64,000 bases of DNA from Escherichia coli (lineage in GTDB: Bacteria > Pseudomonadota > Gammaproteobacteria > Enterobacterales > Enterobacteriaceae), in the NCBI RefSeq assembly GCF_045037415.1, contig NZ_CP173438.1; one strand, given 5' to 3'. The notes under the pieces were generated by a model. The model was not told where the DNA came from. It was given only the letters and a program-made list of their open reading frames with translations, and did no database searches. Position numbers and translations under genes: made by a program. Shown here in pieces: positions 1 to 16,918 of this stretch (position 1 is the first letter of the stretch; every line of letters starts with the position of its first letter).

Positions 1-1535
1 ACTTTTATGAAGAACGCCCTGCGAGCGGTTGGGATATTCGTGCCGAAGCCTGGCTTCCCGCTTATCCGCAGCTTGGCGGTAAAATCGTTTTCGAACATTA
101 TTACGGGGATGAAGTTGCGCTATTTGGTACCGACAATCTAGAGAAAGATCCCTTCGCTGTCACGTTAGGCGTGAAATACCAGCCTGTTCCGCTCATTGCT
201 GTAGGAACGGACTTCAAAGCAGGAACCGGTGATAACACCGATACCACGGTCAACGCAACGCTTAACTACCAGTTTGGCGTCCCGCTCAAAGACCAGCTTG
301 ATCCTGACAAAGTGAGCGCGGCTCACTCACTCATGGGCAGCCGTCACGACTTTGTTGAACGTAACAACTTTATTGTTCTGGAATATAAAGAGAAAGATCC
401 CCTCGATGTCACTTTGTGGCTGAAAGCTGATGCGATGAATGAACATCCCGAGTGCGTGATTAAAGATACGCCAGAAGAAGCTATCGGGCTGGAAAAATGT
501 AAATGGACCATTAACGCGCTTGTCAACCACCACTACAAAATTGTCGCTGCGTCATGGCAGGCGAAAAACAATGCCGCCCGCACGCTGGTGATGCCGGTTA
601 TCAAAGAGAATACCCTGACAGAGGGCAACAATAACCACTGGAACCTGGTGCTGCCCGTCTGGCAGTACAGCTCTGACAAAGCCGAACAAGGAAAACTCAA
701 TACCTGGCGGGTTCGCCTGGCGCTGAAAGATGAAAAGGGCAACCGACAGAACTCAGGCGTGGTGGAAATCACCGTTCAGCAGGACCGTAAAATTGAGCTG
801 ATTGTTAATAACATCGCGAACGTGCCGGAAGAGAACAACCACAGCCACGAAGCCAGTGCACAGGCTGATGGTGTAGATGGTGTGGTGATGGATCTCGATA
901 TTACTGATAGCTTTGGCGACAACACTGACCGCAACGGTAATGTCTTGCCGCAGGATAATCTCAACCCGCAGCTGTTTGATGCCAACGATAAAAAAGTGAC
1001 GCTGACGAATAACCCCTGCACTACCGAGACTCCCTGTGTCTTTATCGCCAAACAAGATAAAGAAAAGGGGACCGTTACGCTCTCCAGTACGTTGCCTGGC
1101 ACCTTCCGTTGGAAGGCGAAAGCTGCCCCCTATGATGACAGTAACTATGTTGACGTAACGTTCCTGGGGGCTGACATCGGCGGGCTGAATGCCTTTATCT
1201 ATCGCGTTGGTGCGGCTAAATCCGTGAATCTTATCGGCAATAAAGAACCGTTGCCCCTCAATAGCCGATATCGCTTTGTGTTGTGGCGCGACGCTAACAA
1301 AGACGGTGTGTTCCAGCTATCTGAAAAGCTCACTGACGAAGAGATGAAACAGTATGACTACCAATGGGAATTCACGGGGCATAGCGTAAATGGCAATACT
1401 GGCGCGCAAGCCAATACCACTAACGTCGATATCGAGATCCCGGCAACGAACAAGGAAGCGGCAGCGAAGTTTAGTGCCCAGGTAACCGATGGTGTGCAAG
1501 GGTACGGTTTGCAGGTCAATTACAGCAAGACATAG
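1..1535 (+). CDS. sinH: Intimin/invasin-family inverse autotransporter (SinH-like), 3' portion; 5' end lies outside the window
   Basis: Frame is open from the window edge to the stop at 1533-1535. First residues in window (..GKIVFEHYYGDEVALFGTDNL..VGTDFKAGTGDN..) resemble the end of an intimin beta-barrel followed by passenger domains. Order sinH-sinI-ratA-xseA matches CS54-type island synteny (established knowledge). Confidence 0.6.
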   Translation, partial: FYEERPASGWDIRAEAWLPAYPQLGGKIVFEHYYGDEVALFGTDNLEKDPFAVTLGVKYQPVPLIAVGTDFKAGTGDNTDTTVNATLNYQFGVPLKDQLDPDKVSAAHSLMGSRHDFVERNNFIVLEYKEKDPLDVTLWLKADAMNEHPECVIKDTPEEAIGLEKCKWTINALVNHHYKIVAASWQAKNNAARTLVMPVIKENTLTEGNNNHWNLVLPVWQYSSDKAEQGKLNTWRVRLALKDEKGNRQNSGVVEITVQQDRKIELIVNNIANVPEENNHSHEASAQADGVDGVVMDLDITDSFGDNTDRNGNVLPQDNLNPQLFDANDKKVTLTNNPCTTETPCVFIAKQDKEKGTVTLSSTLPGTFRWKAKAAPYDDSNYVDVTFLGADIGGLNAFIYRVGAAKSVNLIGNKEPLPLNSRYRFVLWRDANKDGVFQLSEKLTDEEMKQYDYQWEFTGHSVNGNTGAQANTTNVDIEIPATNKEAAAKFSAQVTDGVQGYGLQVNYSKT

Positions 1536-1584
1536 GAACAGCGCCATGGCTGATCGGGCCACCGCTGAATGTTAACCAAGGAGA

Positions 1585-2583
1585 GTGTTTATGAAACCTC
1601 ATATGAAACGTGGCCTGACAAAAGTCGCGCTGGCACTGATGCTGGCTGGATACTGTGCCGTACCAGTCGCTATGGCGGAAGATGCTGCCTGGGTCGCCAG
1701 TGGAACGACAGCTGAATTCGAGGGGACCATACCCTGGCTCTATCGCGAAGGGGGGAATGCTACGATTAACTCGGAAGATGCGGATCACATCAAAGTGACA
1801 TCTGATAGTAAAGGTATCCGTCCTGCAGGTAGCGAGTCTGATAAACGCCTTTACTCAGGGGATACCATCACGCTGGGTTGGGATATCGGCGATACCGAAG
1901 GGGATATCGATGATGGTTCCGCAGGCATTGATGCGAAAACGACGGCGACCATCAAATGGTACAGCTACAGTGATAATGCGGGTGGCGGTAAAACGGAGTT
2001 GACTGCGGCGGCAGGAAAAACCAGTTATAAAATCACCGATGGCGATCGTGGACGCTATATCGGTGTTGAAATCCAGCCTATCACTCAGACCGGTAATCCC
2101 TTCCAGGGAACTTCGCTGACTCTGCTGGATATTTCTACGGCCAGCGGTGGCGGCAGCGATACGGATAATGTCGATCCTGGTCCGGTTGTTAACCAGAACC
2201 TGAAAGTTGCCATCTTCGAGAAAGACACCAGTACCAACCTTATCGGTGGTAATACAGCCATTGCGCTTAACAAAACGTATGTGGCCAAACTGTACTCGGA
2301 TGAAAACCAGAACGGTAAATACGACGCGGGTACGGATGTGGACGTTACCGCTAACTACGACTTTGCGTGGGTCTTTAACGGTAACAGTAAACAACTTGCG
2401 GCGGCGGGCGGTATTGCCAACGCCAGCTTCGATAACAATGACATTGTTATTCCGCAAACTAACGAACAAGCAAGAACCAGCCTTAACGGTAGTGACCGTA
2501 ATGGTAAGACCGGCCTTGCAATCCCGGCAAACGGCGACGGCGTTCAGGGCTATACGCTGTCTATCATTTACAAACACCACTAA
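1585..2583 (+). CDS. sinI: SinI-like secreted protein (332 aa) with signal peptide
   Basis: RBS aaggagag upstream; N-terminal signal peptide (MKRGLTKVALALMLAGYCAVPVAMA); C-terminal about 100 aa homologous to the C-terminus of the preceding intimin-like protein (..NGNxxxAxAN..DIxIPxTN..DGVQGYxL..Y). Confidence 0.6.
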   Translation: MFMKPHMKRGLTKVALALMLAGYCAVPVAMAEDAAWVASGTTAEFEGTIPWLYREGGNATINSEDADHIKVTSDSKGIRPAGSESDKRLYSGDTITLGWDIGDTEGDIDDGSAGIDAKTTATIKWYSYSDNAGGGKTELTAAAGKTSYKITDGDRGRYIGVEIQPITQTGNPFQGTSLTLLDISTASGGGSDTDNVDPGPVVNQNLKVAIFEKDTSTNLIGGNTAIALNKTYVAKLYSDENQNGKYDAGTDVDVTANYDFAWVFNGNSKQLAAAGGIANASFDNNDIVIPQTNEQARTSLNGSDRNGKTGLAIPANGDGVQGYTLSIIYKHH

Positions 2584-2590
2584 TGCGCAC

Positions 2591-2621
2591 AACAGCATTC
2601 CCGTATGGGAATGCTGTTTTC
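2591..2621 (+). terminator. Rho-independent terminator after sinI-like gene
   Basis: Hairpin acagcattccc-gtat-gggaatgctgt followed by TTTT. Confidence 0.6.
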
Positions 2622-2692
2622 CGCCTGTTTTGCTTAGCGACGCGTTAAGCAAAACGGGTTGACGTTTTGTTTATCATGCTGGAGTTTTCTAC

Positions 2693-5600
2693 ATGTCGGT
2701 ATGTCTGAAACCAGGAAAAATCATTGTGCTTCTGGGCATGTTGGCAGCCTTTATGCTGTCTGACTTTGCACGGGCAGAGGTGGAATGGCAGACATATCCT
2801 GGTTCTACAGGCGAGTTTAACGGTACAGTTCCTATTGCCGATAGCGCCAGCGTACCCGTTTATCAGGGAAGCGTTCAGCTTGATCCTGCTGCATCTCATG
2901 ATGTGGCGTTTTCTGCTAAACCGAATGAATTTAGCGTTGACGATGACGCTGCTAACCTGATAGTTGCTAATCCTCAGGACAGTGAAGGCGACCAGTTTTC
3001 TACACCACCTGCGCTGCGCTGGGAAAACCAGACGCCGCCGACCGTCAGTCTGGTGTGGGCGGATGCCGCCACGCCGGATACGCCGCTCAATCCACAGCCC
3101 ATCGCCAACCGCAGCTTTTGCGCGCAAGGTCTGGCCGGGCGTTCGCTGGTGGCCTGGCCACAGATTGATGCGCAGCAGACCATTCCACTGCTTTATCTGC
3201 TGACCTCGACCGGTTATCCCTATGAGGGGACGGTGGTGCTGGCTGACCAGAAAGTGACGCTGAATATCGCGCCCGCGCAGGGCGATTTAATTTCGGTGAG
3301 CGCCAGTGGTTATAACGAAACGCTCGGCGCGGCAAAAACCACCGTTGGCGGCACTATCACGCTGACCGTCACCACCAAAGATTGTCAGGGTAACGTCGCG
3401 GGTAATATTCCATTTATTATCAAGCGTAAAGATGCCCAAAACCGTCAGGGCGCGGTAAATAATACCGCGCCGGTGGTGCTGGATAGCACCGAGTTAACGA
3501 CGACGGTAACCGAGTATCGTGGCACATCGGATGCTAACGGTACGGCAACCATCACGGTGACCCAGCCTAACGGCCCCGGTGTTAAAACGCCGCTGGTAGT
3601 CGGCATTTCCGGCATTGCACAAACCAGTGAGGCGGCGGTGATCTTTACCGTGCTCACCAGCCCGGACGTGGCGCAGGCCACGATGTGGGGCCATATGGCG
3701 GAGACGGTGGAAGCCCATGGTTACACGTTCAGTAGACCAAAACTGGCGGCGGAAGTCAGTAACGAAAATGCCACGGTCGTCGATCACAATGAAACCTGGT
3801 CCACCTTTACCTGGAGCGGCGCAGATAGCCATTGCACCGTGCTGCCGGGCATGCGCCACTTCGGCGCACTGGCGACGGTGATTCCCTCCACGGTACAGAC
3901 TGTGCTCGGCTGGCCGATGCAGGGCGATTATTACTGGTCATCGCTGGCGGGGCTTACCGGGCAGCACCATGCGGCAGATGTCTCTAACCGTGGCGAAACG
4001 CAGAAGCCGGACAGCACCACGTTCCTCGTGAGCTGCGTGGATAAGCCCGCGCCTGACGTCGAGCCGAAAATCGTCCTCACGCCAGAAAACTATGATGACA
4101 CGGCGCAGGCGATGAAAGCGAAGGTGGGCGAGGATGCGACGATGCGTCTGGCCATCACCGACACGAAAAACAACGATCAACCGCTGGCGTATTACTACTT
4201 CTCGCTACATCTGGATGATGGCGTCAATCGTAAGAATCAAACCGACACTGCCTGGGAAGCCCATCCGGTACAGATTGCTGGCGGCAGTAATTTTCGCCAG
4301 GTCGACGCACATACCTATGAAGGCATGACCGACGCCAACGGCCAGGCTTCGCTCACCCTGAGCCAGCCCGGCGGCGCGGGGGTGAAAACCCATATCACGG
4401 CAAGAATGCGCAGCGATTTTAACGCCACAGATGCCAAAGATGTGATTTTTACCGTAATCACCAGCCCGGACAGCGACAAAGCGCGGATGTGGGGCCATAT
4501 GCGCGGCATTATTGAGTCCGGCAGTTTGTATAAACGCCCGTTGCTGGCGGATGAAACCGAGCATGAATTGGGAACAGTGCGGGAAAATAACGAAGACTGG
4601 GCGCTCTACGATCAAAACACCAGTATGCAGGCGGAATGCGGCGTCGGTCATATACCGCGCCAGAGCTCACTGGAAAGCCTGTTTTCAGCCCATCCCGGTA
4701 ACGCGATTGGTACTGAATATGGCTGGCCCACTGCACAACAGGGCTATTTAAGCGCGGTGGAGCAAGCCACGCATTCATCGGTGGATCTGGGGAACGGGAG
4801 CGTCGACAGCTATTCCGGCTTTAAGCCGAATTACCTCTCCTGTTCGGGTAATGAGATGGTAGCGAATGTTGAAGTCAGCACCGATCATGATGTGTCTGTT
4901 GGCACCCAAGCGCAAGCCAAAGTGGGTGACACCATTGTGATGACCGTGCGTACGATTAACTCGCTCAATAATATCCCTGTACCCTTTACTGCATTCACCA
5001 TTACCAAAGGTATGGGGTATAACCGAGCGGGGCAGGTGAGCGGGTTTGATGACCCGAGCAGTGGTGCAATCACGATGGATAACACGCAATACGGCACATC
5101 ACAGTCATCGAAGGTTTATGCGGGAATAACCGATGCCCGGGGCGTGGCGACGGTCGAGATTAAGCAACCACAGGGCGTCGGGCTAAAAACGGTGCTGAGC
5201 GTAACGCCGGTAAATTCCTACCTGCCGAATACCGTTAACTACAGCGTTATTTTTACTACCCCAACCAGCCCGGACGTTACCGGCGCGCAGATGTGGGGCC
5301 ATATGGATGAAACGATCACCGTTGATTCATCAACCTTTACCCGGCCTAAACTGGCGTCGGAAGTCGCCAGCCCGGACGGAACCCTGACCGAAAATAACGA
5401 AATCTGGGCGCGCGTGAGCCAGGCCAATACGTCCAGTACCAGTAAAGGTGGCTGCGACACCAATATGTTGCCACGTCGTTCCCAGCTAAGTGCGCTGTAT
5501 AACGCCAACAGTGGTAACGCGGTGCAAACGGCGCACGGTTGGCCAACACAGCGTCAGCCTTACTGGAGCAACTCACCGGCAGATAAAACTCCACACTTTT

Positions 5601-8600
5601 TCACGATAGCGCTGAACGATGGCGCACAAACTATTGGCGGCGATACGCCGGTTTACGTCAGTTGCCTGAAGACGGCGAACAAACCTGCCAGCAGCATTAC
5701 GCTGGAGGTGGTTGATAAAGCGCAATGGAATACCGGGAATAGCGCGGCAACGCTGAAAAAAGGCGAGACGCTACAGGTTAAAGTGACGGTAAAAGACGCA
5801 CAGGGCAACGCGTTAGCGGATATGCCATTTACCCTCAATCGCGGTGATGGCTATACCCGTAGCGGCGAAAAACATGTGGCGGGCAGCGGCGATGCGCTGG
5901 TTGCGCCGGTGGTAGTCAATGGCGGGCTGGCAGATGAAACCACGTTGAACGACACTGCAACGGTGTATACCGCCATGACCGACAATGACGGCAGCAAAAT
6001 TCTCAATATTACCCGCCCGGATACTCACGGCACCAAAACGGCGCTGACGGCAATGCTTTACTCTGATGCGACGAAAAAATCCAGCATCGACACAATCTTT
6101 ACGGTGGTGACCAGCCCGGATAGCCGCCTGGCAAAAATGTGGGGACATATGCCGGAAACGGTGACTGCTGCGGACGGTACGGTATTTAAGCGCCCGCTGT
6201 TGTTGAAGGAACTGGCCTATCAGACTGGGCGAACATCAACGTCTGAAGACAATGAAAACTGGGCGTTGTTTAACATTAATTATGCAAGTTTTTCCACGAC
6301 GTACAGCGGCTGTGGAACCAACTATATTCCGACTCAGGCCGGTCTGACGTCACTGTTTGCTAATAATGCGGGCAACACCATGAAAACCGTGCAGGGCTGG
6401 CCGGTGGCAACGCGCTATTTATCCAACACTTCCGACAACGGCAGCATGGAGCAGCGTAACTACAAGGCGGTAGATCTCAGCAATGGCACGAGTGCGGCAG
6501 TGTCATCAACGACGCTGGAGCTGCTGACCTGCCAGACCGCGCCGATAGCCGCGGTGAGCCAAATCCTGCTGGAAGCGGCAGATCCGGTGACGCTGGATAC
6601 CACCTATAACGTGGTAAAAGCGAAAAAAAGCGAAGAATCCGTGGTGCGCGTCATCACCAAAGATGCGCAAGGCAACCTTGTGGGCAATACGGCATTTATC
6701 CTGACGCGAGCCAACAGTGTAAGTCGGGCTAATTCATCGGCGACGATGAGTGTGGGCGCGCTGACGGTGACGGATGCGTGGGGAAATACGCGAAATAATT
6801 TCCAGTCAACGAGTGAAACCATTTACGGCGTGACCGGTGCCGACGGGTCAACGACATTTACCCTAAAACAGGATAACAGTACCGGGTTAAGAACCGATCT
6901 CACGGCAAAACTGGATACGTCCAGCAGCGTCAAGGCGATGCTACCGGTGGTCTTTACCGTCGTGACCAGCCCGGATTCGCCAAAAGCGAATTTTTGGGGA
7001 CATATGGCCGAAACGGTGACGGCCTCCGATGGTTCGGTTTATAAGCGACCGTTGCTGTTTGGCGAGCTTACCAACAACTATGCACGATATAGCACGTTTG
7101 AGAACGGTGAAAGTTGGGCAAGATTCACCTCGACTCAGTCGGCTGACACCAGCATGAATGGGTGTGGTACAGATTATATGCCAACGCTGGATGGTCTGAA
7201 GTCTTTGTATGACGCCAATAGAGGTAATGCGATGAATACGGTACAGGGATGGCCGGTAAATATGAGTTATCTCACCAATACCCCGAGTAATACACAAACA
7301 GGGAGCCGTTACTACAATGTGGTGCAACTAAATTCTGGCGCAGTTTCGCAAATCGTATCCACCGTGCTGGCGTTACAAACCTGCCGTACAACGCCGTTGA
7401 TGACTGCCAGCCAGATTACGCTGGAAGCCTCAGACCCCGGGCAGTTTGTCAGCATTGACAGCACACTTAGCGCCGTCAAAGCGAAGAAGGGGGATGAGGT
7501 GTCGATCCGCATTTCGACTAAAGATGCGCAGGGGAATTTAGTCGGCAATACGCCGTTTGCCCTGAAACACGCGAACTCGATCAATCGTCAGAATGTGACG
7601 TCATCGCAGAAAGTGTCAGTCACGACTGCGGCGGGTGCGACGGTGGATACCAGTGCAACGACCATCCTGTATGGTGTAACAGGGCCAGATGGAACCACTA
7701 CGATGACGCTCCGACAGGATGCTTCCACTGGGTTAAGAACCGACTTTTATGCTCTATTAAACGATACTGGCGTGTCGTCGGACACCTTGTCGGTGATCTT
7801 TACCGTCACCACCAGCCCGGATACGCCGCTGGCGACCAATTGGGGCCATATGGCGGAAACCTTTACCAGCAGCGAAGGCGTCACCTTCAAACGGCCTTTC
7901 CTCAAAGCCGAACTCTCTGGCGGTACGGCGAAAACGGCCAATAATGAAGTCTGGTCGCTCCTGACCGCGACTGAGAAAGCGGACGTCAGCAAGGCTGGGT
8001 GTGATGAGGCGTATCAACCGCTGACGACTGATATGCAGGGGCTGTATGTCGATTATCCCAATGGTCAACTGGCAACGGTGCTCGGCTTGCCGACTGCTGC
8101 AGGGAACTGGTGGGATTATGACATGATGGCGGTAGCGGGCGGTAGCTGGAGTAACCAGGCGTTTGTTCCGGGAAATGGTCAGTTGATTCAGGCATCGTCC
8201 AGCTATACGGCGATAGTGATGTGTTTGGTAGAGCCTCATACGGAAGCAGTCACAATAGAGCTTACCTCAACGGCGCAGGATGCAGCAAAATCGCTCAGCA
8301 ATGATGGACGACCGAGCGCTGTAGCGAAGAAAGGTGAGCTGATTCCGTTGACGGTGACCGTGCGTGATAGCGCCGGGAACCCGATGCCATATGCCGACTT
8401 TACCCTTTCGCGTGAAACGACGCTGGATCGCGCGAAAGCAACCGTTAACACGAGTGCAGACGATCTTACCGTAACGGCATTGGTTCCGGTGAGTAGGGAT
8501 AGCGTGTTGACAGCAAGTGGAGCAAAAACTCTCGCAACGACGGGCAGTGATGGCACAGCCACCTTTGAGGTTGGGCAGTACTCTACTACCGGGTTGGCGA

Positions 8601-10774
8601 CGCCGTTAACCGTGACGCTGGCGCGTGATACAACGAAAGTCGCCACGCTGGATGTTATCTACACGGTGATTACCAGCCCAGATTCACCGAGTGCTAAATT
8701 CTGGGGGCATATGCCGGACACCTTTACCAGTTCGGCGGGCGTCACCTTCAAACGACCCCTGCTGAAAACCGAAACCAGCTCAGGCTTATCGATTAGTTCT
8801 AACGGCGAAGTTTGGTCGTATATGAGCAACTTGCAAAATTTAACATCTACAGATTGCCCACTCGAGAATCAACCGCGCAGTAAGGAACTGTTGGATTTGT
8901 ATAGTGATCATCCGAACGGCGCAATAATGACTGACCTTGGGTTACCGATGAATGCGGGTAACTGGTGGGCTTATGATATGGCCATACTGGGTACAACAAC
9001 GTGGTCTTATCAGACTGTCAGCCTGAGAACAGGAGCTATCGCGAAGAATTCTGCAACCAACGCACTGATGCTCTGTCTGGCGCAGCCGCATCCGGCAGGC
9101 GTTAGCGTAACATTGACGTCATCCGCACTGGATGACGCCAGAACCCTCAGCAATGGCGGCCGACCTAGCGCGTCAGTGAAAAAAGATAACCCATTGCCAA
9201 TTGTGGTTATGGTCAAAGATCGTGATGGCAACCCGCTGGCGGGCGAAGCGATAACGCTCAGGCGTGATAATGCGATGAGCCGCTCAGGAACCATTGTAAA
9301 CACGGCAGCAAATGTGATGGTATTGACGGAACTGGCACCCGTGTCGGCAACATTCACTCTCGCCTCACACGGCACGCAATGGCTTGGTTTTACCGGCAGC
9401 GATGGTACGGCGATATTCAATGTTGAACAGCCTGATACTGTCGGCCTGGCAACACCGTTTACCGCCATCCTGGCACGTGATACGGAAACCACCACTGTCC
9501 TTGATGCGATCTTCACCGTTGTCACCAGCCCTGATTCCGCAATGGCGGCCTACTGGGGTCATATGCCGGATACGGTAACGGCAGAAAACGGTGTGGTCTT
9601 TGAAAGACCTAAATTGTGGAAAGAGCTGCCGTCGACATCAGGGGTTAGCAAGGTCAATAGTAACAATGAAGTCTGGCCCGTGTTTAACGCAACGCAGAGG
9701 GCTGACAGCAATCTCAGCCCTTGTGAAGCGGCACGTCGGCCATTGAGTGATGATTTAGAATCGCTCTATGCTCGCTATCCGGGGAACACGCTGACGACAC
9801 AAATCGGTTGGTCTACGCAGTATACATGGTGGGCGCTGGATAACTGGCTGGGAGGCAGTAATCCGCAGGTAGTCGGTCTGAATAATGGTTCAGCGTGGGG
9901 GACGGTGAATACCGCGTATCAAGGGTGCCTGGTTAACCCGCGTGCGACTGTCTCCAGCGTCACGTTGACATCGACGGCACTGGATAGCAGTACGCAGGCG
10001 GCGAAGGTGAAAAAAGGCGACGCCGTTCCCGTTGTCGTTACCGTGAAAGACAGTGTCGGGAAACCAGTGCCGAATATTTCGTTTATCCTCAAACGTGGTG
10101 ACGCTACGCCGCGTAATAGCGGGGCGACGTTGTATGGCGATGTGGATACAATGGACGATTTGACTGTACAACCCTCATCCGGTGCGGCAGTCACGTTGGC
10201 TGATAGCGGGAATACAATCGATGGAGTTACTGGAGCAGACGGTACAGCAAGTTTTACCGTTGGTCAGGATAATACGCCAGGATATAAAACGCCGTTGACG
10301 GTGACGCTGACGGATAACGCCACAATAACGGCGACGCTGGACACGATTTTCACCGTGCCGACCAGTCCTAATGTCGCCACGGCGTATTTCTGGGGTCATA
10401 TGGCGGATACCGCCACGGTAAGTGGCAAGATGCTGCATCGCCCGCTATTAAAATCGGAGTTGCCGTCAGGGGTTACCGCAGCAGCAACGCCCAATGTGAA
10501 TAATGAAACCTGGGCGCTGGCACATGTTATAGATTCCACTAAATGGGATGTCGCACGGCAGTGCGGTAGTATGAATAACGTGCCGAGCAGTGCCGAATTA
10601 CAAACATTACACTCCGGCTTTAGCACATTGGGATGGCCGTCATCGATAAGCTTCCCGTATTTATCTACTGATAAGGCTGGATCGTTCTATTGTGGTGTTG
10701 AGGAAGGCTCTGGCAGTCTCAACTGTGGCATTCAGCCTGCGAAAACGCCGGGGTTTGCAACCTGTTTCCAATAA
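2693..10774 (+). CDS. ratA: Giant repetitive Ig-like-domain surface protein (2693 aa), RatA-like
   Basis: Signal peptide at N-terminus; about nine tandem repeats of roughly 280 aa, each ending in a conserved FTVxTSPD..A..WGHM(A/P)(E/D)T motif; adjacent to xseA as in CS54-type islands. Confidence 0.65.
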
Positions 10775-10808
10775 CCTTGCCCACCCTATCAATATGAGGT
10801 TCCGAAAG

Positions 10809-12225
<1,417 letters not shown>

Positions 12226-12307
12226 TTATTCAGTCGATAGTAACCCGCCCTCCGGGGATAGCAAGCATTTTTTGCAAAAAGGGGTAGATGCAATCGGTTA
12301 CGCTCTG

Positions 12308-12313
12308 TATAAT
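12308..12313 (+). promoter_or_regulatory. Candidate -10 hexamer (TATAAT) of guaBA promoter with GC-rich discriminator
   Basis: TATAAT 44 nt upstream of guaB ATG, followed by gccgcgg; -35 element not convincingly identified. Confidence 0.4.
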
Positions 12314-12356
12314 GCCGCGGCAATATTTATTAACCACTCTGGTCGAGATATTGCCC

Positions 12357-13823
12357 ATGCTACGTATCGCTAAAGAAGCTCTGACGTTTGACGACGTTCT
12401 CCTCGTTCCTGCTCATTCTACCGTTCTGCCAAATACTGCTGACCTCAGCACTCAGCTGACGAAAACTATTCGTCTGAATATCCCTATGCTTTCCGCAGCA
12501 ATGGATACCGTAACGGAAGCGCGCCTGGCTATTGCTCTGGCTCAGGAAGGCGGTATCGGCTTTATCCACAAAAACATGTCCATTGAACGCCAGGCAGAAG
12601 AAGTTCGCCGTGTGAAAAAACACGAATCTGGCGTGGTAACCGATCCGCAGACCGTACTGCCAACTACGACGCTGCGTGAAGTGAAAGAACTGACCGAGCG
12701 TAACGGCTTTGCTGGCTACCCGGTTGTTACCGAAGAAAACGAACTGGTCGGCATTATCACCGGTCGTGACGTGCGTTTTGTGACCGACTTGAGCCAGCCG
12801 GTTAGCGTTTACATGACGCCGAAAGAGCGTCTGGTAACCGTGCGTGAAGGCGAAGCCCGTGAAGTGGTGCTGGCAAAAATGCACGAAAAACGCGTTGAAA
12901 AAGCGCTGGTGGTTGATGATGAATTCCACCTGATCGGCATGATCACTGTTAAGGACTTCCAGAAAGCGGAACGTAAACCGAACGCGTGTAAAGACGAACA
13001 AGGCCGTCTGCGTGTAGGTGCAGCGGTTGGCGCGGGCGCTGGTAACGAAGAGCGTGTTGATGCGCTGGTTGCCGCAGGCGTTGACGTTCTGCTGATCGAC
13101 TCCTCTCACGGTCACTCTGAAGGTGTTCTGCAGCGTATCCGTGAAACTCGCGCTAAATATCCTGACCTGCAAATCATCGGCGGCAACGTGGCAACTGCTG
13201 CAGGTGCCCGCGCGCTGGCAGAAGCCGGTTGCAGTGCCGTTAAAGTGGGTATCGGCCCTGGTTCTATCTGTACGACGCGTATCGTGACTGGTGTCGGTGT
13301 TCCGCAGATCACCGCCGTTGCTGATGCAGTAGAAGCCCTGGAAGGTACCGGCATTCCGGTTATCGCTGACGGCGGTATCCGTTTCTCAGGCGATATCGCT
13401 AAAGCTATCGCCGCTGGCGCAAGCGCGGTGATGGTAGGTTCCATGCTGGCAGGTACTGAAGAATCTCCGGGTGAAATCGAACTCTACCAGGGCCGTTCTT
13501 ACAAATCTTACCGTGGTATGGGTTCCCTGGGCGCGATGTCCAAAGGTTCTTCTGACCGTTACTTCCAGAGCGACAACGCTGCCGACAAACTGGTGCCGGA
13601 AGGTATCGAAGGTCGCGTAGCCTATAAAGGTCGCCTGAAAGAGATCATTCACCAGCAGATGGGCGGCCTGCGCTCCTGTATGGGCCTGACCGGCTGTGGT
13701 ACTATCGACGAACTGCGTACTAAAGCGGAGTTTGTACGTATCAGCGGTGCGGGTATTCAGGAAAGCCACGTTCACGACGTGACCATTACTAAAGAGTCCC
13801 CGAACTACCGTCTGGGCTCCTGA
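12357..13823 (+). CDS. guaB: IMP dehydrogenase
   Basis: 488-aa protein starting [21 protein letters not shown] with CBS domains and catalytic [11 protein letters not shown] motif; the ORF-track start at 12288 is an upstream extension. Confidence 0.95.
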
Positions 13824-13891
13824 TTCTCTTCGCCCGACTTCATGTCGGGCGATTTATATTATCTGTTTCACTTGCCTCGGAATAAGCGTCA

Positions 13892-15469
13892 ATGACGGAA
13901 AACATTCATAAGCATCGCATCCTCATTCTGGACTTCGGTTCCCAGTATACTCAACTGGTTGCGCGCCGCGTGCGTGAACTGGGGGTTTACTGCGAACTGT
14001 GGGCGTGGGATGTGACAGAAGCACAAATTCGTGACTTCAATCCAAGCGGCATTATTCTTTCCGGCGGCCCGGAAAGTACTACTGAAGAAAACAGCCCGCG
14101 TGCGCCGCAGTATGTCTTTGAAGCAGGCGTACCGGTATTCGGCGTTTGCTATGGTATGCAGACCATGGCGATGCAGTTGGGCGGTCACGTTGAGGCTTCT
14201 AATGAACGTGAATTTGGCTACGCGCAGGTTGAAGTCGTAAACGACAGCGCACTGGTTCGCGGTATCGAAGATGCTCTGACCGCAGATGGTAAACCGCTGC
14301 TGGACGTCTGGATGAGCCACGGCGATAAAGTTACCGCTATCCCGTCCGACTTCGTCACCGTAGCCAGCACCGAAAGCTGCCCGTTTGCCATCATGGCCAA
14401 CGAAGAAAAACGCTTCTATGGCGTACAGTTCCACCCGGAAGTGACTCACACCCGCCAGGGTATGCGCATGCTGGAGCGTTTTGTGCGTGATATCTGCCAG
14501 TGTGAAGCCCTGTGGACGCCAGCGAAAATTATCGACGACGCTGTAGCCCGCATCCGCGAGCAGGTAGGCGACGATAAAGTCATCCTCGGCCTCTCTGGTG
14601 GCGTGGATTCCTCCGTAACCGCAATGCTGTTGCACCGCGCTATCGGTAAAAACCTGACTTGCGTATTCGTCGACAACGGCCTGCTGCGTCTCAACGAAGC
14701 AGAGCAGGTTCTGGATATGTTTGGCGATCACTTTGGTCTGAACATTGTTCACGTACCGGCAGAAGATCGCTTCTTGTCAGCGCTGGCTGGCGAAAACGAT
14801 CCGGAAGCAAAACGTAAAATCATCGGGCGCGTTTTCGTTGAAGTATTCGATGAAGAAGCGCTGAAACTGGAAGACGTGAAGTGGCTGGCGCAGGGCACCA
14901 TCTACCCTGACGTTATCGAATCTGCTGCTTCTGCAACCGGTAAAGCACACGTCATCAAATCTCACCACAACGTGGGTGGGCTGCCGAAAGAGATGAAGAT
15001 GGGCCTGGTTGAACCGCTGAAAGAGCTGTTCAAAGACGAAGTGCGTAAGATTGGTCTGGAGCTGGGCCTGCCGTATGACATGTTGTACCGTCACCCGTTC
15101 CCGGGACCAGGCCTTGGCGTTCGTGTTCTGGGGGAAGTGAAGAAAGAGTATTGTGACCTGCTGCGCCGTGCTGACGCCATCTTCATTGAAGAACTGCGTA
15201 AAGCGGACCTGTACGACAAAGTCAGCCAGGCGTTCACCGTCTTCCTGCCAGTACGTTCCGTTGGCGTAATGGGCGATGGTCGTAAGTATGACTGGGTTGT
15301 CTCTCTGCGTGCTGTCGAAACCATCGACTTTATGACCGCACACTGGGCACATCTGCCGTACGATTTCCTCGGTCGAGTTTCCAACCGCATTATCAATGAA
15401 GTGAATGGTATTTCCCGCGTGGTGTATGACATCAGCGGCAAGCCACCAGCAACTATTGAGTGGGAATGA
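13892..15469 (+). CDS. guaA: GMP synthase (glutamine-hydrolysing)
   Basis: 525-aa protein [36 protein letters not shown]..; glutamine amidotransferase plus ATP-pyrophosphatase (SGGVDSSV) domains. The last codons (IEWE-stop) lie within the prophage att core. Confidence 0.95.
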
Positions 15470-15471
15470 TT
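15455..15471. repeat. attL core (17-bp direct repeat) overlapping guaA stop codon
   Basis: Identical 17-mer at 55459-55475. Confidence 0.8.
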
Positions 15472-15517
15472 AACAGCTAACTCATAGCAACTCATTCCTA
15501 TTCAGATACTAATTTAA

Positions 15518-15546
15518 CCCTCTGTTTTTACAGAGGGTTTTTGTTT
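15518..15546 (+). terminator. Rho-independent terminator downstream of guaA (phage-supplied copy)
   Basis: ccctctg-ttttta-cagaggg plus T-run; near-identical hairpin with a different loop at 55502-55527. Confidence 0.7.
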
Positions 15547-15604
15547 TTATGTATTCATTTCTATTCACTCTACACCATATTTTTCGTCGGTACAGGTGAC
15601 GGTA

Positions 15605-15619
15605 TTACCTTAAAGGTAT
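15605..15619. promoter_or_regulatory. Imperfect copy of prophage palindromic motif (TTACC-TTAAA-GGTAT) upstream of int
   Basis: One mismatch to TTACC-N5-GGTAA; 43 bp upstream of int start. Confidence 0.4.
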
Positions 15620-15661
15620 ACTCTCATACCGTCATGAAAATGGTTTCTATACGGGTGAATT

Positions 15662-16918
15662 GTGCTTACCGATACAAAATTAAAAAACCTCAAGCCGCAG
15701 GACAAACTGTACAAGGTCTCCGATCGTGACGGGCTGTATGTAGCTGTGCTTACGTCAGGCACGGTCTCGTTTCGCTATGACTACCGTATCAACGGTCGCC
15801 GCGAAACACTGGTAATCGGGCAGTATGGGCGTGACGGTATCAGCCTGGCAGAAGCGCGAGAAGAACTGATTGCTGCAAAGAAGCTGCTTAAAGCAGGCCA
15901 GTCACCGGCTGCGGCTAAACGTGACGGTATTAAAAAGATTCGTGGTGCCGAGACGTTTGCGGTACATACCGACAGTTATATGAAACACGTCATCCTGGCT
16001 GACAGTACCCGCGCAATGAAGCAGGCGGTGATCGACCGTGACATACTTCCGGTTCTTGGCAACAAAATGATGGCTGAAATTACCACATCAATGGTTCGTG
16101 ATTTGTGTGACCGGATTGTCGAACGCGGTGGTCGGGCAACAGCAGTACAGGCCAGGGAGATCATCAGCAGCGTATACCGTCACGCCAATGACCGTGGTCA
16201 TGGTTTGTTTAATCCTGCGGCTGACATTAAACCTTCGTCTATCGCCATATTTAAACCACGAGAGCGAACACTGACACCAGAAGAAATTGGCCTGTTCTTC
16301 CGCACGCTGGATGCCATTGGTGCTATGGGCACTATGAAAATGGCTTTAAAGCTGGTGCTTATCACCATGGTTCGTAAGGGAGAATTCACCAATGCAACGT
16401 GGGATGAAATAGATTTTAAAAAATGGACATGGACAATTCCTTCAGACCGCATGAAGGGAAGTCGGGCGCACGTTATTTACCTGCCTAAACAGGCACAGGA
16501 TATATTAGTCGGGTTGCAGATGTGCGCTGGTGGAAGTGAATATCTGGTTCCTGGTCGTTACAATTTCCGGAAGCCATTATCTAATGCCGCGCTGAACTCT
16601 CTGATCGACAGAACGGTGAAAATAATAAATGAAGATGGTGAGCATATTCAGGATTTTACTGTACATGATATGCGCCGTACAGCCAGTACATTGTTGCATG
16701 AGGCTGGTTATCCTTCAGACTGGATTGAAAAGGCTCTGGCACACGAGCAGAAAGGTGTGCGCGCCGTATATAACAAAGCGGAATACGCCAGACAGCGCGC
16801 CTACATGTTGCAGCAGTGGGCCGATATGATTGATTCCTGGATTAACGGGGAGCATACGGATCTGATTCCGTTCTCCCCGTCGAAGTTTGAGAAGTGGATG
16901 GAAGACAGTAATAAATAA
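15662..16918 (+). CDS. int: Tyrosine integrase (P4-type N-terminal arm-binding domain)
   Basis: GTG start; MLTDTKLKNLKPQDKLYKVSDRDGLYVAV.. typical of P4-like integrases; C-terminal catalytic region with HxxR and terminal Tyr; adjacent to attL. Confidence 0.9.
   Translation: MLTDTKLKNLKPQDKLYKVSDRDGLYVAVLTSGTVSFRYDYRINGRRETLVIGQYGRDGISLAEAREELIAAKKLLKAGQSPAAAKRDGIKKIRGAETFAVHTDSYMKHVILADSTRAMKQAVIDRDILPVLGNKMMAEITTSMVRDLCDRIVERGGRATAVQAREIISSVYRHANDRGHGLFNPAADIKPSSIAIFKPRERTLTPEEIGLFFRTLDAIGAMGTMKMALKLVLITMVRKGEFTNATWDEIDFKKWTWTIPSDRMKGSRAHVIYLPKQAQDILVGLQMCAGGSEYLVPGRYNFRKPLSNAALNSLIDRTVKIINEDGEHIQDFTVHDMRRTASTLLHEAGYPSDWIEKALAHEQKGVRAVYNKAEYARQRAYMLQQWADMIDSWINGEHTDLIPFSPSKFEKWMEDSNK

Follow-up and report, generated by a model that had tools for sequence, protein, structure and literature searches.

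The window analysed here is a stretch of 64,000 nucleotides (nt) of Escherichia coli DNA (contig NZ_CP173438.1 of assembly GCF_045037415.1), in which a single plus-strand open reading frame (ORF; positions 2693-10774) encodes a protein of 2693 amino acids (aa). A sequence-only reading had described its product as a RatA-like giant protein built of nine tandem repeats of about 280 aa, each capped by a conserved motif, and had suggested that its size may differ between strains through repeat gain or loss. The locus thus raises the questions of what the repeated unit is, what place the conserved motif has in it, and how stable the array is. The best overall explanation, to which we assign a probability of roughly 85%, is that this gene, in the sinH-sinI-ratA locus, codes for the RatA-like protein of E. 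coli, that the protein consists of nine two-domain units which are ancient duplicates, that rare whole-unit losses break preferentially at a hinge inside the unit, and that the product is probably exported and then displayed or released as a long rod.

Identity of the gene and anatomy of the repeated unit

At the DNA level the ORF region matches closed chromosomes of E. coli, e.g. that of strain 4/1-1, with 100% identity, and the encoded protein likewise shows 100% identity to the E. coli RefSeq entry WP_000109687.1, annotated as an "adhesion domain-containing protein" or a "DUF823 domain-containing adhesin". It matches the NCBIfam equivalog NF011844 ("RatA-like protein") from end to end (residues 3-2693 on profile positions 1-2683 of 2683) with 5335.1 bits against a cut-off of 3870, and the name RatA-like was therefore well chosen. 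The scores obtained with the two Salmonella equivalogs, RatA (NF011843; 2075.6 bits, cut-off 3700) and RatB (NF011842; 2229.5 bits, cut-off 4079), fall below their cut-offs, and good alignment to these profiles is limited to the N-terminal ~1470-1490 aa of the E. coli protein. Pfam analysis distinguished nine BIg21 stretches (PF05688; E 4.6e-196, 639 bits) and nine InvE_AD stretches (PF05689; E 7.7e-282, 920.5 bits), which alternate above the gathering scores, as in a DUF823 repeat protein. In the annotation, der and a zinc-ribbon gene precede sinH and sinI, and the ratA-like gene that comes next is followed by xseA, guaB and guaA; the E. coli locus has a single rat gene and no shdA. The ORF encodes the E. 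coli RatA-like protein and takes third place in the sinH-sinI-ratA locus ("ila", CS54-like). RefSeq, NCBIfam and Pfam already cover the protein as well as its repeat architecture, so that neither represents a new kind of object.

The motif [FY]T[VT]xTSP[DN] occurs exactly nine times (aa 318, 586, 854, 1136, 1421, 1703, 1990, 2274 and 2553), each time followed 14 aa further on by WGHM (nucleotide positions 3686, 4490, 5294, 6140, 6995, 7841, 8702, 9554 and 10391), with a spacing of 804-861 nt, i.e. 268-287 aa. Among 20,000 shuffled versions of the protein, both motifs combined reached a mean of 0.19 and a maximum of 4 occurrences, compared with the 18 observed, and no WGHM was found outside the nine sites in any frame or place of the 64-kb window. 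Autocorrelation of the protein gave peaks at 284, ~567, ~850, 1132, 1417 and 1699 aa, and the alignment of the nine units contains 24 invariant columns distributed along the entire unit, which shows that the periodicity extends well past the short motif. This self-comparison bears out the nine tandem repeats of ~280 aa and refutes the view that nothing but the motif recurs. The downstream segment, given previously as NNE(N/T)WA, is real but looser than that wording implies: only E-x-W, located 35-38 aa after the W of WGHM, is invariant, and N[NG]ExW is present in seven of the nine units. The divergence of the repeats at the nucleotide level had also been judged correctly, the identity between units being 25-42% (aa) and 40-53% (nt); Tandem Repeats Finder, applied to positions 1-16000, detected no array of units and only five short repeats with a period of 8-15.

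In an alignment of 33 diverse units of the E. coli protein and related proteins, the hinge residues S137, P138, G147, H148 and M149 were invariant in all 33, as were R163, P164, E184, W186 and the cysteine pair C202/C275. The glycine of WGHM is encoded by GGC, GGA, GGG or GGT, depending on the copy, and adjacent codons also differ synonymously, which argues for selection acting on the protein and not for recent copying. Recent gene conversion between the units was rejected because of these synonymous differences among the hinge copies.

One unit, R5 (aa 1290-1573; positions 6560-7411), was used for modelling. The AlphaFold2 (AF2) model obtained for it has a predicted local distance difference test score (pLDDT) of 94.4 and a predicted template modelling score (pTM) of 0.88, and was matched by Foldseek to PDB 5n40 with an E value of 1.2e-19. 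This structure, of the adhesin InvE of Yersinia pseudotuberculosis, is the only solved relative recognized by sequence (aligned to aa 187-427, in R1, with E 1.6e-31), and the RatA-like unit has the same two-domain fold. Each repeat of ~280 aa is composed of a BIg21 immunoglobulin-like (Ig-like) domain followed by an InvE_AD adhesion domain of the C-type-lectin fold. The modelling thus supports the proposal of Ig-like modules with a conserved junction, but adds a second, adhesion domain to each unit and places the junction within the unit. The assignment of InvE_AD to the C-type-lectin-like class is a tentative one, based on weak structural matches and on the InvE paper, in which the Ca2+- and carbohydrate-binding motifs of C-type lectins are reported to be absent.

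In the R5 model the last Ig strand continues unbroken through F132-T133...T136-S137-P138, the second (adhesion) domain opens with a strand made up of W146-G-H-M149, and NNExW is the next conserved strand after the hinge motif. As modelled, the motif consists of the last Ig strand, a short linker and the first strand of the adhesion domain. It is a within-unit hinge at the Ig-to-adhesion-domain junction and not, as had been assumed, a cap between units. The hinges are located, all on the plus strand, at 3644-3697 (J1), 4448-4501 (J2), 5252-5305 (J3), 6098-6151 (J4), 6953-7006 (J5), 7799-7852 (J6), 8660-8713 (J7), 9512-9565 (J8) and 10349-10402 (J9). The hinge of InvE is nearly identical (...FNVITSPDSAQASMWGNM...), with N replacing the H of WGHM. 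The motif may be retained by protein-level selection for fixing a rigid joint between the Ig and lectin-fold domains, which, by analogy, could be likened to the D4-D5 joint of invasin and the D2-D3 joint of intimin.

The whole protein, encoded on the plus strand, contains the following elements: (i) a leader, predicted to be a Sec signal peptide (aa 1-28; positions 2693-2776), for which the AF2 model shows a hydrophobic helix (aa 7-26) and which has a putative AxA cleavage site, read off the sequence, between ...FARA and EVEW; (ii) an unrelated, conserved beta-sandwich domain of ~170 aa without a Pfam family (aa 29-197; 2777-3283); and (iii) nine units, the last of which places an adhesion domain at the C-terminus. 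Besides R5, these are R1 (aa 198-457, BIg21 plus InvE_AD; 3284-4063), R2 (aa 458-724; 4064-4864), R3 (aa 725-1000; 4865-5692), R4 (aa 1001-1289; 5693-6559), R6 (aa 1574-1853; 7412-8251), R7 (aa 1854-2137; 8252-9103), R8 (aa 2138-2421; 9104-9955) and the terminal R9 (aa 2422-2693; 9956-10771), whose adhesion domain has extra cysteines.

Age of the units and changes in their number

A search with the nine-unit profile retrieved 405 representative proteins out of 1.84 billion, with nine down to one tandem copies per matched protein; many of the matches have one unit, situated at the end of an inverse autotransporter. Relatives, identified by their own name or by that of another member of their 90% cluster, include proteins of E. 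albertii (2140 aa, 7 units), Salmonella (1893 and 1845 aa, 6 units) and, through named cluster-mates of the proteins analysed, Citrobacter amalonaticus (2128 aa, 7 units) and Atlantibacter (~1560-1590 aa, 5 units). When matched to the E. coli protein unit by unit, all the proteins compared have the N-terminal domain and units 1-4 in the same order, and in all of them the last unit is the counterpart of R9, except for the five-unit protein, which ends after its fifth unit. The number of units, 5 to 11 per protein, changes solely in the middle block (R5-R8-like). The units are ancient duplicates, and the N-terminal domain, the first four units and the terminal one are orthologous by position in Escherichia, in Salmonella and in the proteins with nearest named relatives in Citrobacter and Atlantibacter. 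Within E. coli there are two deeply divergent allele families (the window allele versus P0306/P0295), sharing 66% aa identity overall, with 72-79% in units 1-4, 50-58% in units 5-8 and 65% in unit 9; this divergence of the middle block fits the observation that in the distant allele megablast coverage did not extend past the first half of the gene.

Nine units are the stable state of the protein in E. coli, where losses are recent, sporadic and rare, and gains are ancient. Three alleles (100%, 89.6% and ~74% DNA identity) each have nine hinges, and all large E. coli protein clusters, comprising 208 to 4065 member sequences each, have lengths of 2678-2697 aa, consistent with nine units, which were counted directly in about 20 full-length representatives. 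Rare full-length variants have 8 units (2397-2425 aa), 7 units (2131 and 2157 aa) or, in one case, 11 units (3264 aa). The strain-to-strain size variation anticipated by the sequence-only reading therefore exists, but as an exception to the usual state.

The intact 7-, 8- and 11-unit alleles, together with a PCR marker that exploits the different lengths of ratA in Salmonella serovars (PMC10812584), could suggest a contingency-type array, in which recent duplicates would change their copy number frequently by homologous recombination and allow quick tuning. Near-identical tandem DNA units, by which such loci are recognized, are lacking in the ratA-like gene, where the units have just 40-53% nt identity, share no exact stretch longer than 17 nt and form no array detectable by Tandem Repeats Finder. 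In addition, the large E. coli clusters keep a length consistent with nine units even between 66%-identical alleles, units 1-4 and 9 have retained their positions across genera, and any of the five junction deletions tested is found in only 4 of 5426 closed genomes, all of them related. As a description of the usual behaviour of the gene, the contingency array is largely refuted, and we regard it as very unlikely.

Breakpoints of the variants were mapped by aligning each of them to the closest nine-unit allele. Exact one-unit deletions break between 13 aa before and 12 aa after the W of WGHM, and were identified at J2/J3 (in three allelic backgrounds), J3/J4, J4/J5 (two), J6/J7 (three), J7/J8 and J8/J9. 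Other in-register deletions include one at NNExW, two at GNAMxTVQGWP and a two-unit one inside the Ig domain, and irregular in-frame deletions of 30-480 aa are also present. Of the in-register events, about 15 altogether, 12 are confined to a stretch of 26 out of 283 positions (binomial P = 1.3e-10). The hinges also harbour 17 of the 22 repeated 14-mers of the gene, including all of the longest exact repeats (15-17 nt), and the microhomology coincides exactly with the observed breakpoint for GATGTGGGGCCATATG(G) (J1/J2/J3), GTGACCAGCCCGGAT (J4/J5) and GGCGTCACCTTCAAACG (J6/J7). Exact repeats of 11-17 nt thus make the hinge the preferred crossover site for rare in-frame whole-unit deletions. The clustering of breakpoints at the hinge motif is a modest new detail.

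Most of the shortened variants belong to singleton clusters, derived from draft or Logan assemblies, and they break at repeated sequence, where assemblers fail, as would be expected if the 7- and 8-unit forms were artefacts of short-read assembly caused by collapsed repeats. The exact sequence shared at the breakpoints (not more than 17 nt) is, however, well below the usual assembler k-mers, and the J2/J3 eight-unit allele P0200 was recovered on five independent contigs originating from different samples and assemblers, one of them with k = 141. Moreover, the J1-to-J3 deletion is present, as an annotated intact coding sequence, in four related closed chromosomes (strains 1446, 1447, AZ 189 and AZ 190); its product of 2157 aa is identical to the window allele at 2157 of 2157 residues, with a clean gap of 536 aa and the crossover inside GATGTGGGGCCATATGG. 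We consider an artefactual origin of these variants highly improbable. The chimeric junctions J2/J3, J4/J5, J6/J7 and J7/J8 were found in none of the 5426 closed E. coli genomes, the J4/J5 search being judged on identity and piece count and not on coverage, in which the normal pieces were joined.

The single 11-unit allele occupies the same locus as the nine-unit gene, and its two additional units share no more than 56% and 42% identity with their closest sisters in the same protein, units 6 and 5, respectively, which indicates that the gain is old. It is conceivable, although we hold it to be rather doubtful, that the hinge doubles as a structural joint and a built-in in-frame breakpoint, at which the rod is shortened, or more rarely lengthened, by whole units, with its length under selection and the variable, most divergent units 5-8 serving as the adaptive zone. 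If so, the length of the rod might be tuned, e.g. to the thickness of the capsule or O-antigen, or to antibody pressure.

Two observations concern the decay of the gene. Inside R6, Tandem Repeats Finder detected a 10-nt direct repeat, GGCGGTAGCG (1.9 copies; plus strand, 8128-8146), and in silico removal of one copy yields a product identical to the truncated P0276 (1827 aa), which is known from 183 contigs, the longest of 4.9 Mb; this slippage deletion was found in 0 of 5426 closed RefSeq E. coli genomes. In E. coli GDSC2227PM the whole locus (L004, 6849-15967) is decayed: sinH and sinI, both truncated, are fused to each other, and in the ratA-like gene (6111 nt) codon 196 is an internal stop and the WGHM motifs number only seven.

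Export, expression and possible function

Pfam analysis of the RatA-like protein revealed neither an IAT_beta barrel nor any anchoring-domain family, which distinguishes it from inverse autotransporters. The barrel is encoded by the upstream gene sinH, whose 3' part, cut by the window start, occupies positions 1-1535 (plus strand) and specifies an intimin-like inverse autotransporter (IAT_beta, E 3.4e-47). It is followed by sinI (1591-2583, plus strand; NF040711, 376 bits), encoding an autotransporter-associated protein of the SinI family without a beta-barrel, the C-terminal part of which is 32% identical to the C-terminus of SinH. The order sinH-sinI-ratA was kept in every locus examined, including that of the divergent 11-unit allele. 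A barrel-less, leader-bearing Ig-domain protein encoded downstream of a barrel gene is the arrangement of the ZirT/ZirS type, and by this analogy Rat-like proteins have been proposed to be substrates of SinH-type inverse autotransporters (Heinz et al., 2016; PMC4943183; see also PMC6714894).

Following this analogy, the RatA-like protein would be exported by the Sec system, a disulfide would form in each lectin-fold domain, and display or release would be aided by the neighbouring SinH barrel through a ZirT/ZirS-like route. The product would be a long multivalent rod with nine potential lectin-fold binding domains, acting in host colonisation; both adhesion and SinH-dependent export are putative. 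According to a second-hand report (PMC12928451), uropathogenic E. coli (UPEC) with deletions of ila genes are attenuated in mice.

The sinI-ratA intergenic region (2584-2692, plus strand) is predicted to form two strong hairpins, 12 and 17 bp in length, with UUUUCC after the first (-46.3 kcal/mol; z = -6.1 versus shuffles). Scans for consensus promoters and terminators around both ends of the gene, this region included, found none. The hairpins may limit read-through from sinHI into ratA.

Three further observations touch on the relation between RatA and its neighbours. The first ~48 residues of RatA and SinI (positions 2693-2833 and 1591-1734) share a weak similarity (37.5% identity, E 0.005 in a two-protein database), which covers the leader and an early mature motif, G(S/T)T(G/A)EF(N/E)GT(V/I)P; as judged from sequence, this motif could be a shared export recognition signal. 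Two natural chimeras, P0010 (1616 aa, 16 contigs) and P0018 (902 aa), both from Logan assemblies, have a SinH-like barrel at the N-terminus and several RatA-type units after it, the joint lying part-way through an adhesion domain; they resemble the outcome of deletions fusing a barrel gene to a rat gene, and indicate that RatA-type units can be barrel passengers. In E. coli S1-IND-02-A (L003, 669-2843) sinH is a pseudogene with an internal stop and the downstream ratA-like gene is intact (2691 aa, nine units), which makes this strain a natural case for asking whether RatA needs SinH.

An export route without SinH, either to the surface or medium (e.g. type II secretion) or ending in a periplasmic role, would agree with the Sec-type leader being present without a barrel, with the hairpins, which suggest separate expression, and with the example of Acinetobacter InvL, described in PMC9245377 as a barrel-less invasin-like adhesin secreted by the type II system. 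The conserved gene order, which extends to the 11-unit allele, the natural fusions of a SinH-like barrel to RatA-type units, and the fact that the same two-domain unit forms the passenger tip of the inverse autotransporter InvE argue against such independence, and we consider it unlikely.

Several points weigh against the overall reading given at the outset. The term "adhesion domain" derives from InvE, whose own target is reportedly not known (Sadana et al.). The ratA-like gene is often broken, as seen in the pseudogene of GDSC2227PM, the 1827-aa truncated product and many truncated clusters, and this frequent inactivation implies that it is dispensable in many lineages. The fold comparison of the N-terminal domain gave no informative match, and BLASTP of RatA against SinH and SinI revealed only the weak N-terminal similarity (48 aa), to SinI. 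Finally, a review presents sinH as co-transcribed with sinI and leaves ratA unmentioned (PMC12525524), a silence which, together with the two hairpins, makes the coupling of ratA to the operon uncertain.

Neighbouring DNA and comparison with known systems

According to the annotation of an identical closed genome, guaA and yfgI are separated by an inserted prophage of ~39 kb (window positions 15662 to about 54325). Its tyrosine integrase gene adjoins guaA, and its other genes encode a portal protein, a major capsid protein, a T7 gp14-like core protein, a tail fiber, holins, a GH19 lysin and an internal tRNA-Arg.

SinH of the same locus is being pursued as a vaccine antigen against extraintestinal pathogenic E. 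coli (ExPEC) (PMC12525524), and a giant, variable and often inactivated neighbour, whose export perhaps depends on SinH, forms part of the background to that work. The variation of ratA is also relevant to typing or assembling the locus. The useful picture which emerges is that of an InvE-type pair of Ig and lectin-fold domains repeated nine times, with ends fixed across genera, a middle that varies in number and sequence, and natural in-frame losses of whole units that break at the hinge motif.

The protein analysed does not differ from NF011844/WP_000109687.1 of the "ila" locus, to which it is identical. RatA and RatB of the Salmonella CS54 island ("DUF823/DUF824 repeat adhesins") share with the E. 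coli protein the N-terminal domain, the first four units in order, a related terminal unit and the neighbours sinH and sinI (PMC4943183). They differ from it in having fewer middle units, the 1845- and 1893-aa proteins having six units in all, and the profile lengths of the Salmonella equivalogs are 1860 aa (RatA) and 2435 aa (RatB). The ZirT-ZirS/ZirU system of Salmonella resembles the sin locus in having a barrel gene followed by barrel-less, leader-bearing Ig-domain proteins; RatA is about ten times larger than ZirS, and its export with SinH has the status of a hypothesis (PMC4943183). Invasin and intimin (PDB 1cwv, 1f00/1f02) show no detectable sequence family match to RatA and have only one tip domain, with features for binding integrin or Tir. 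In InvE (PDB 5n40), the source of the Pfam name InvE_AD, the same BIg21/InvE_AD pair forms the tip: InvE is an inverse autotransporter that includes a barrel and ends in one adhesion domain, whereas RatA has no barrel and carries the pair nine times.

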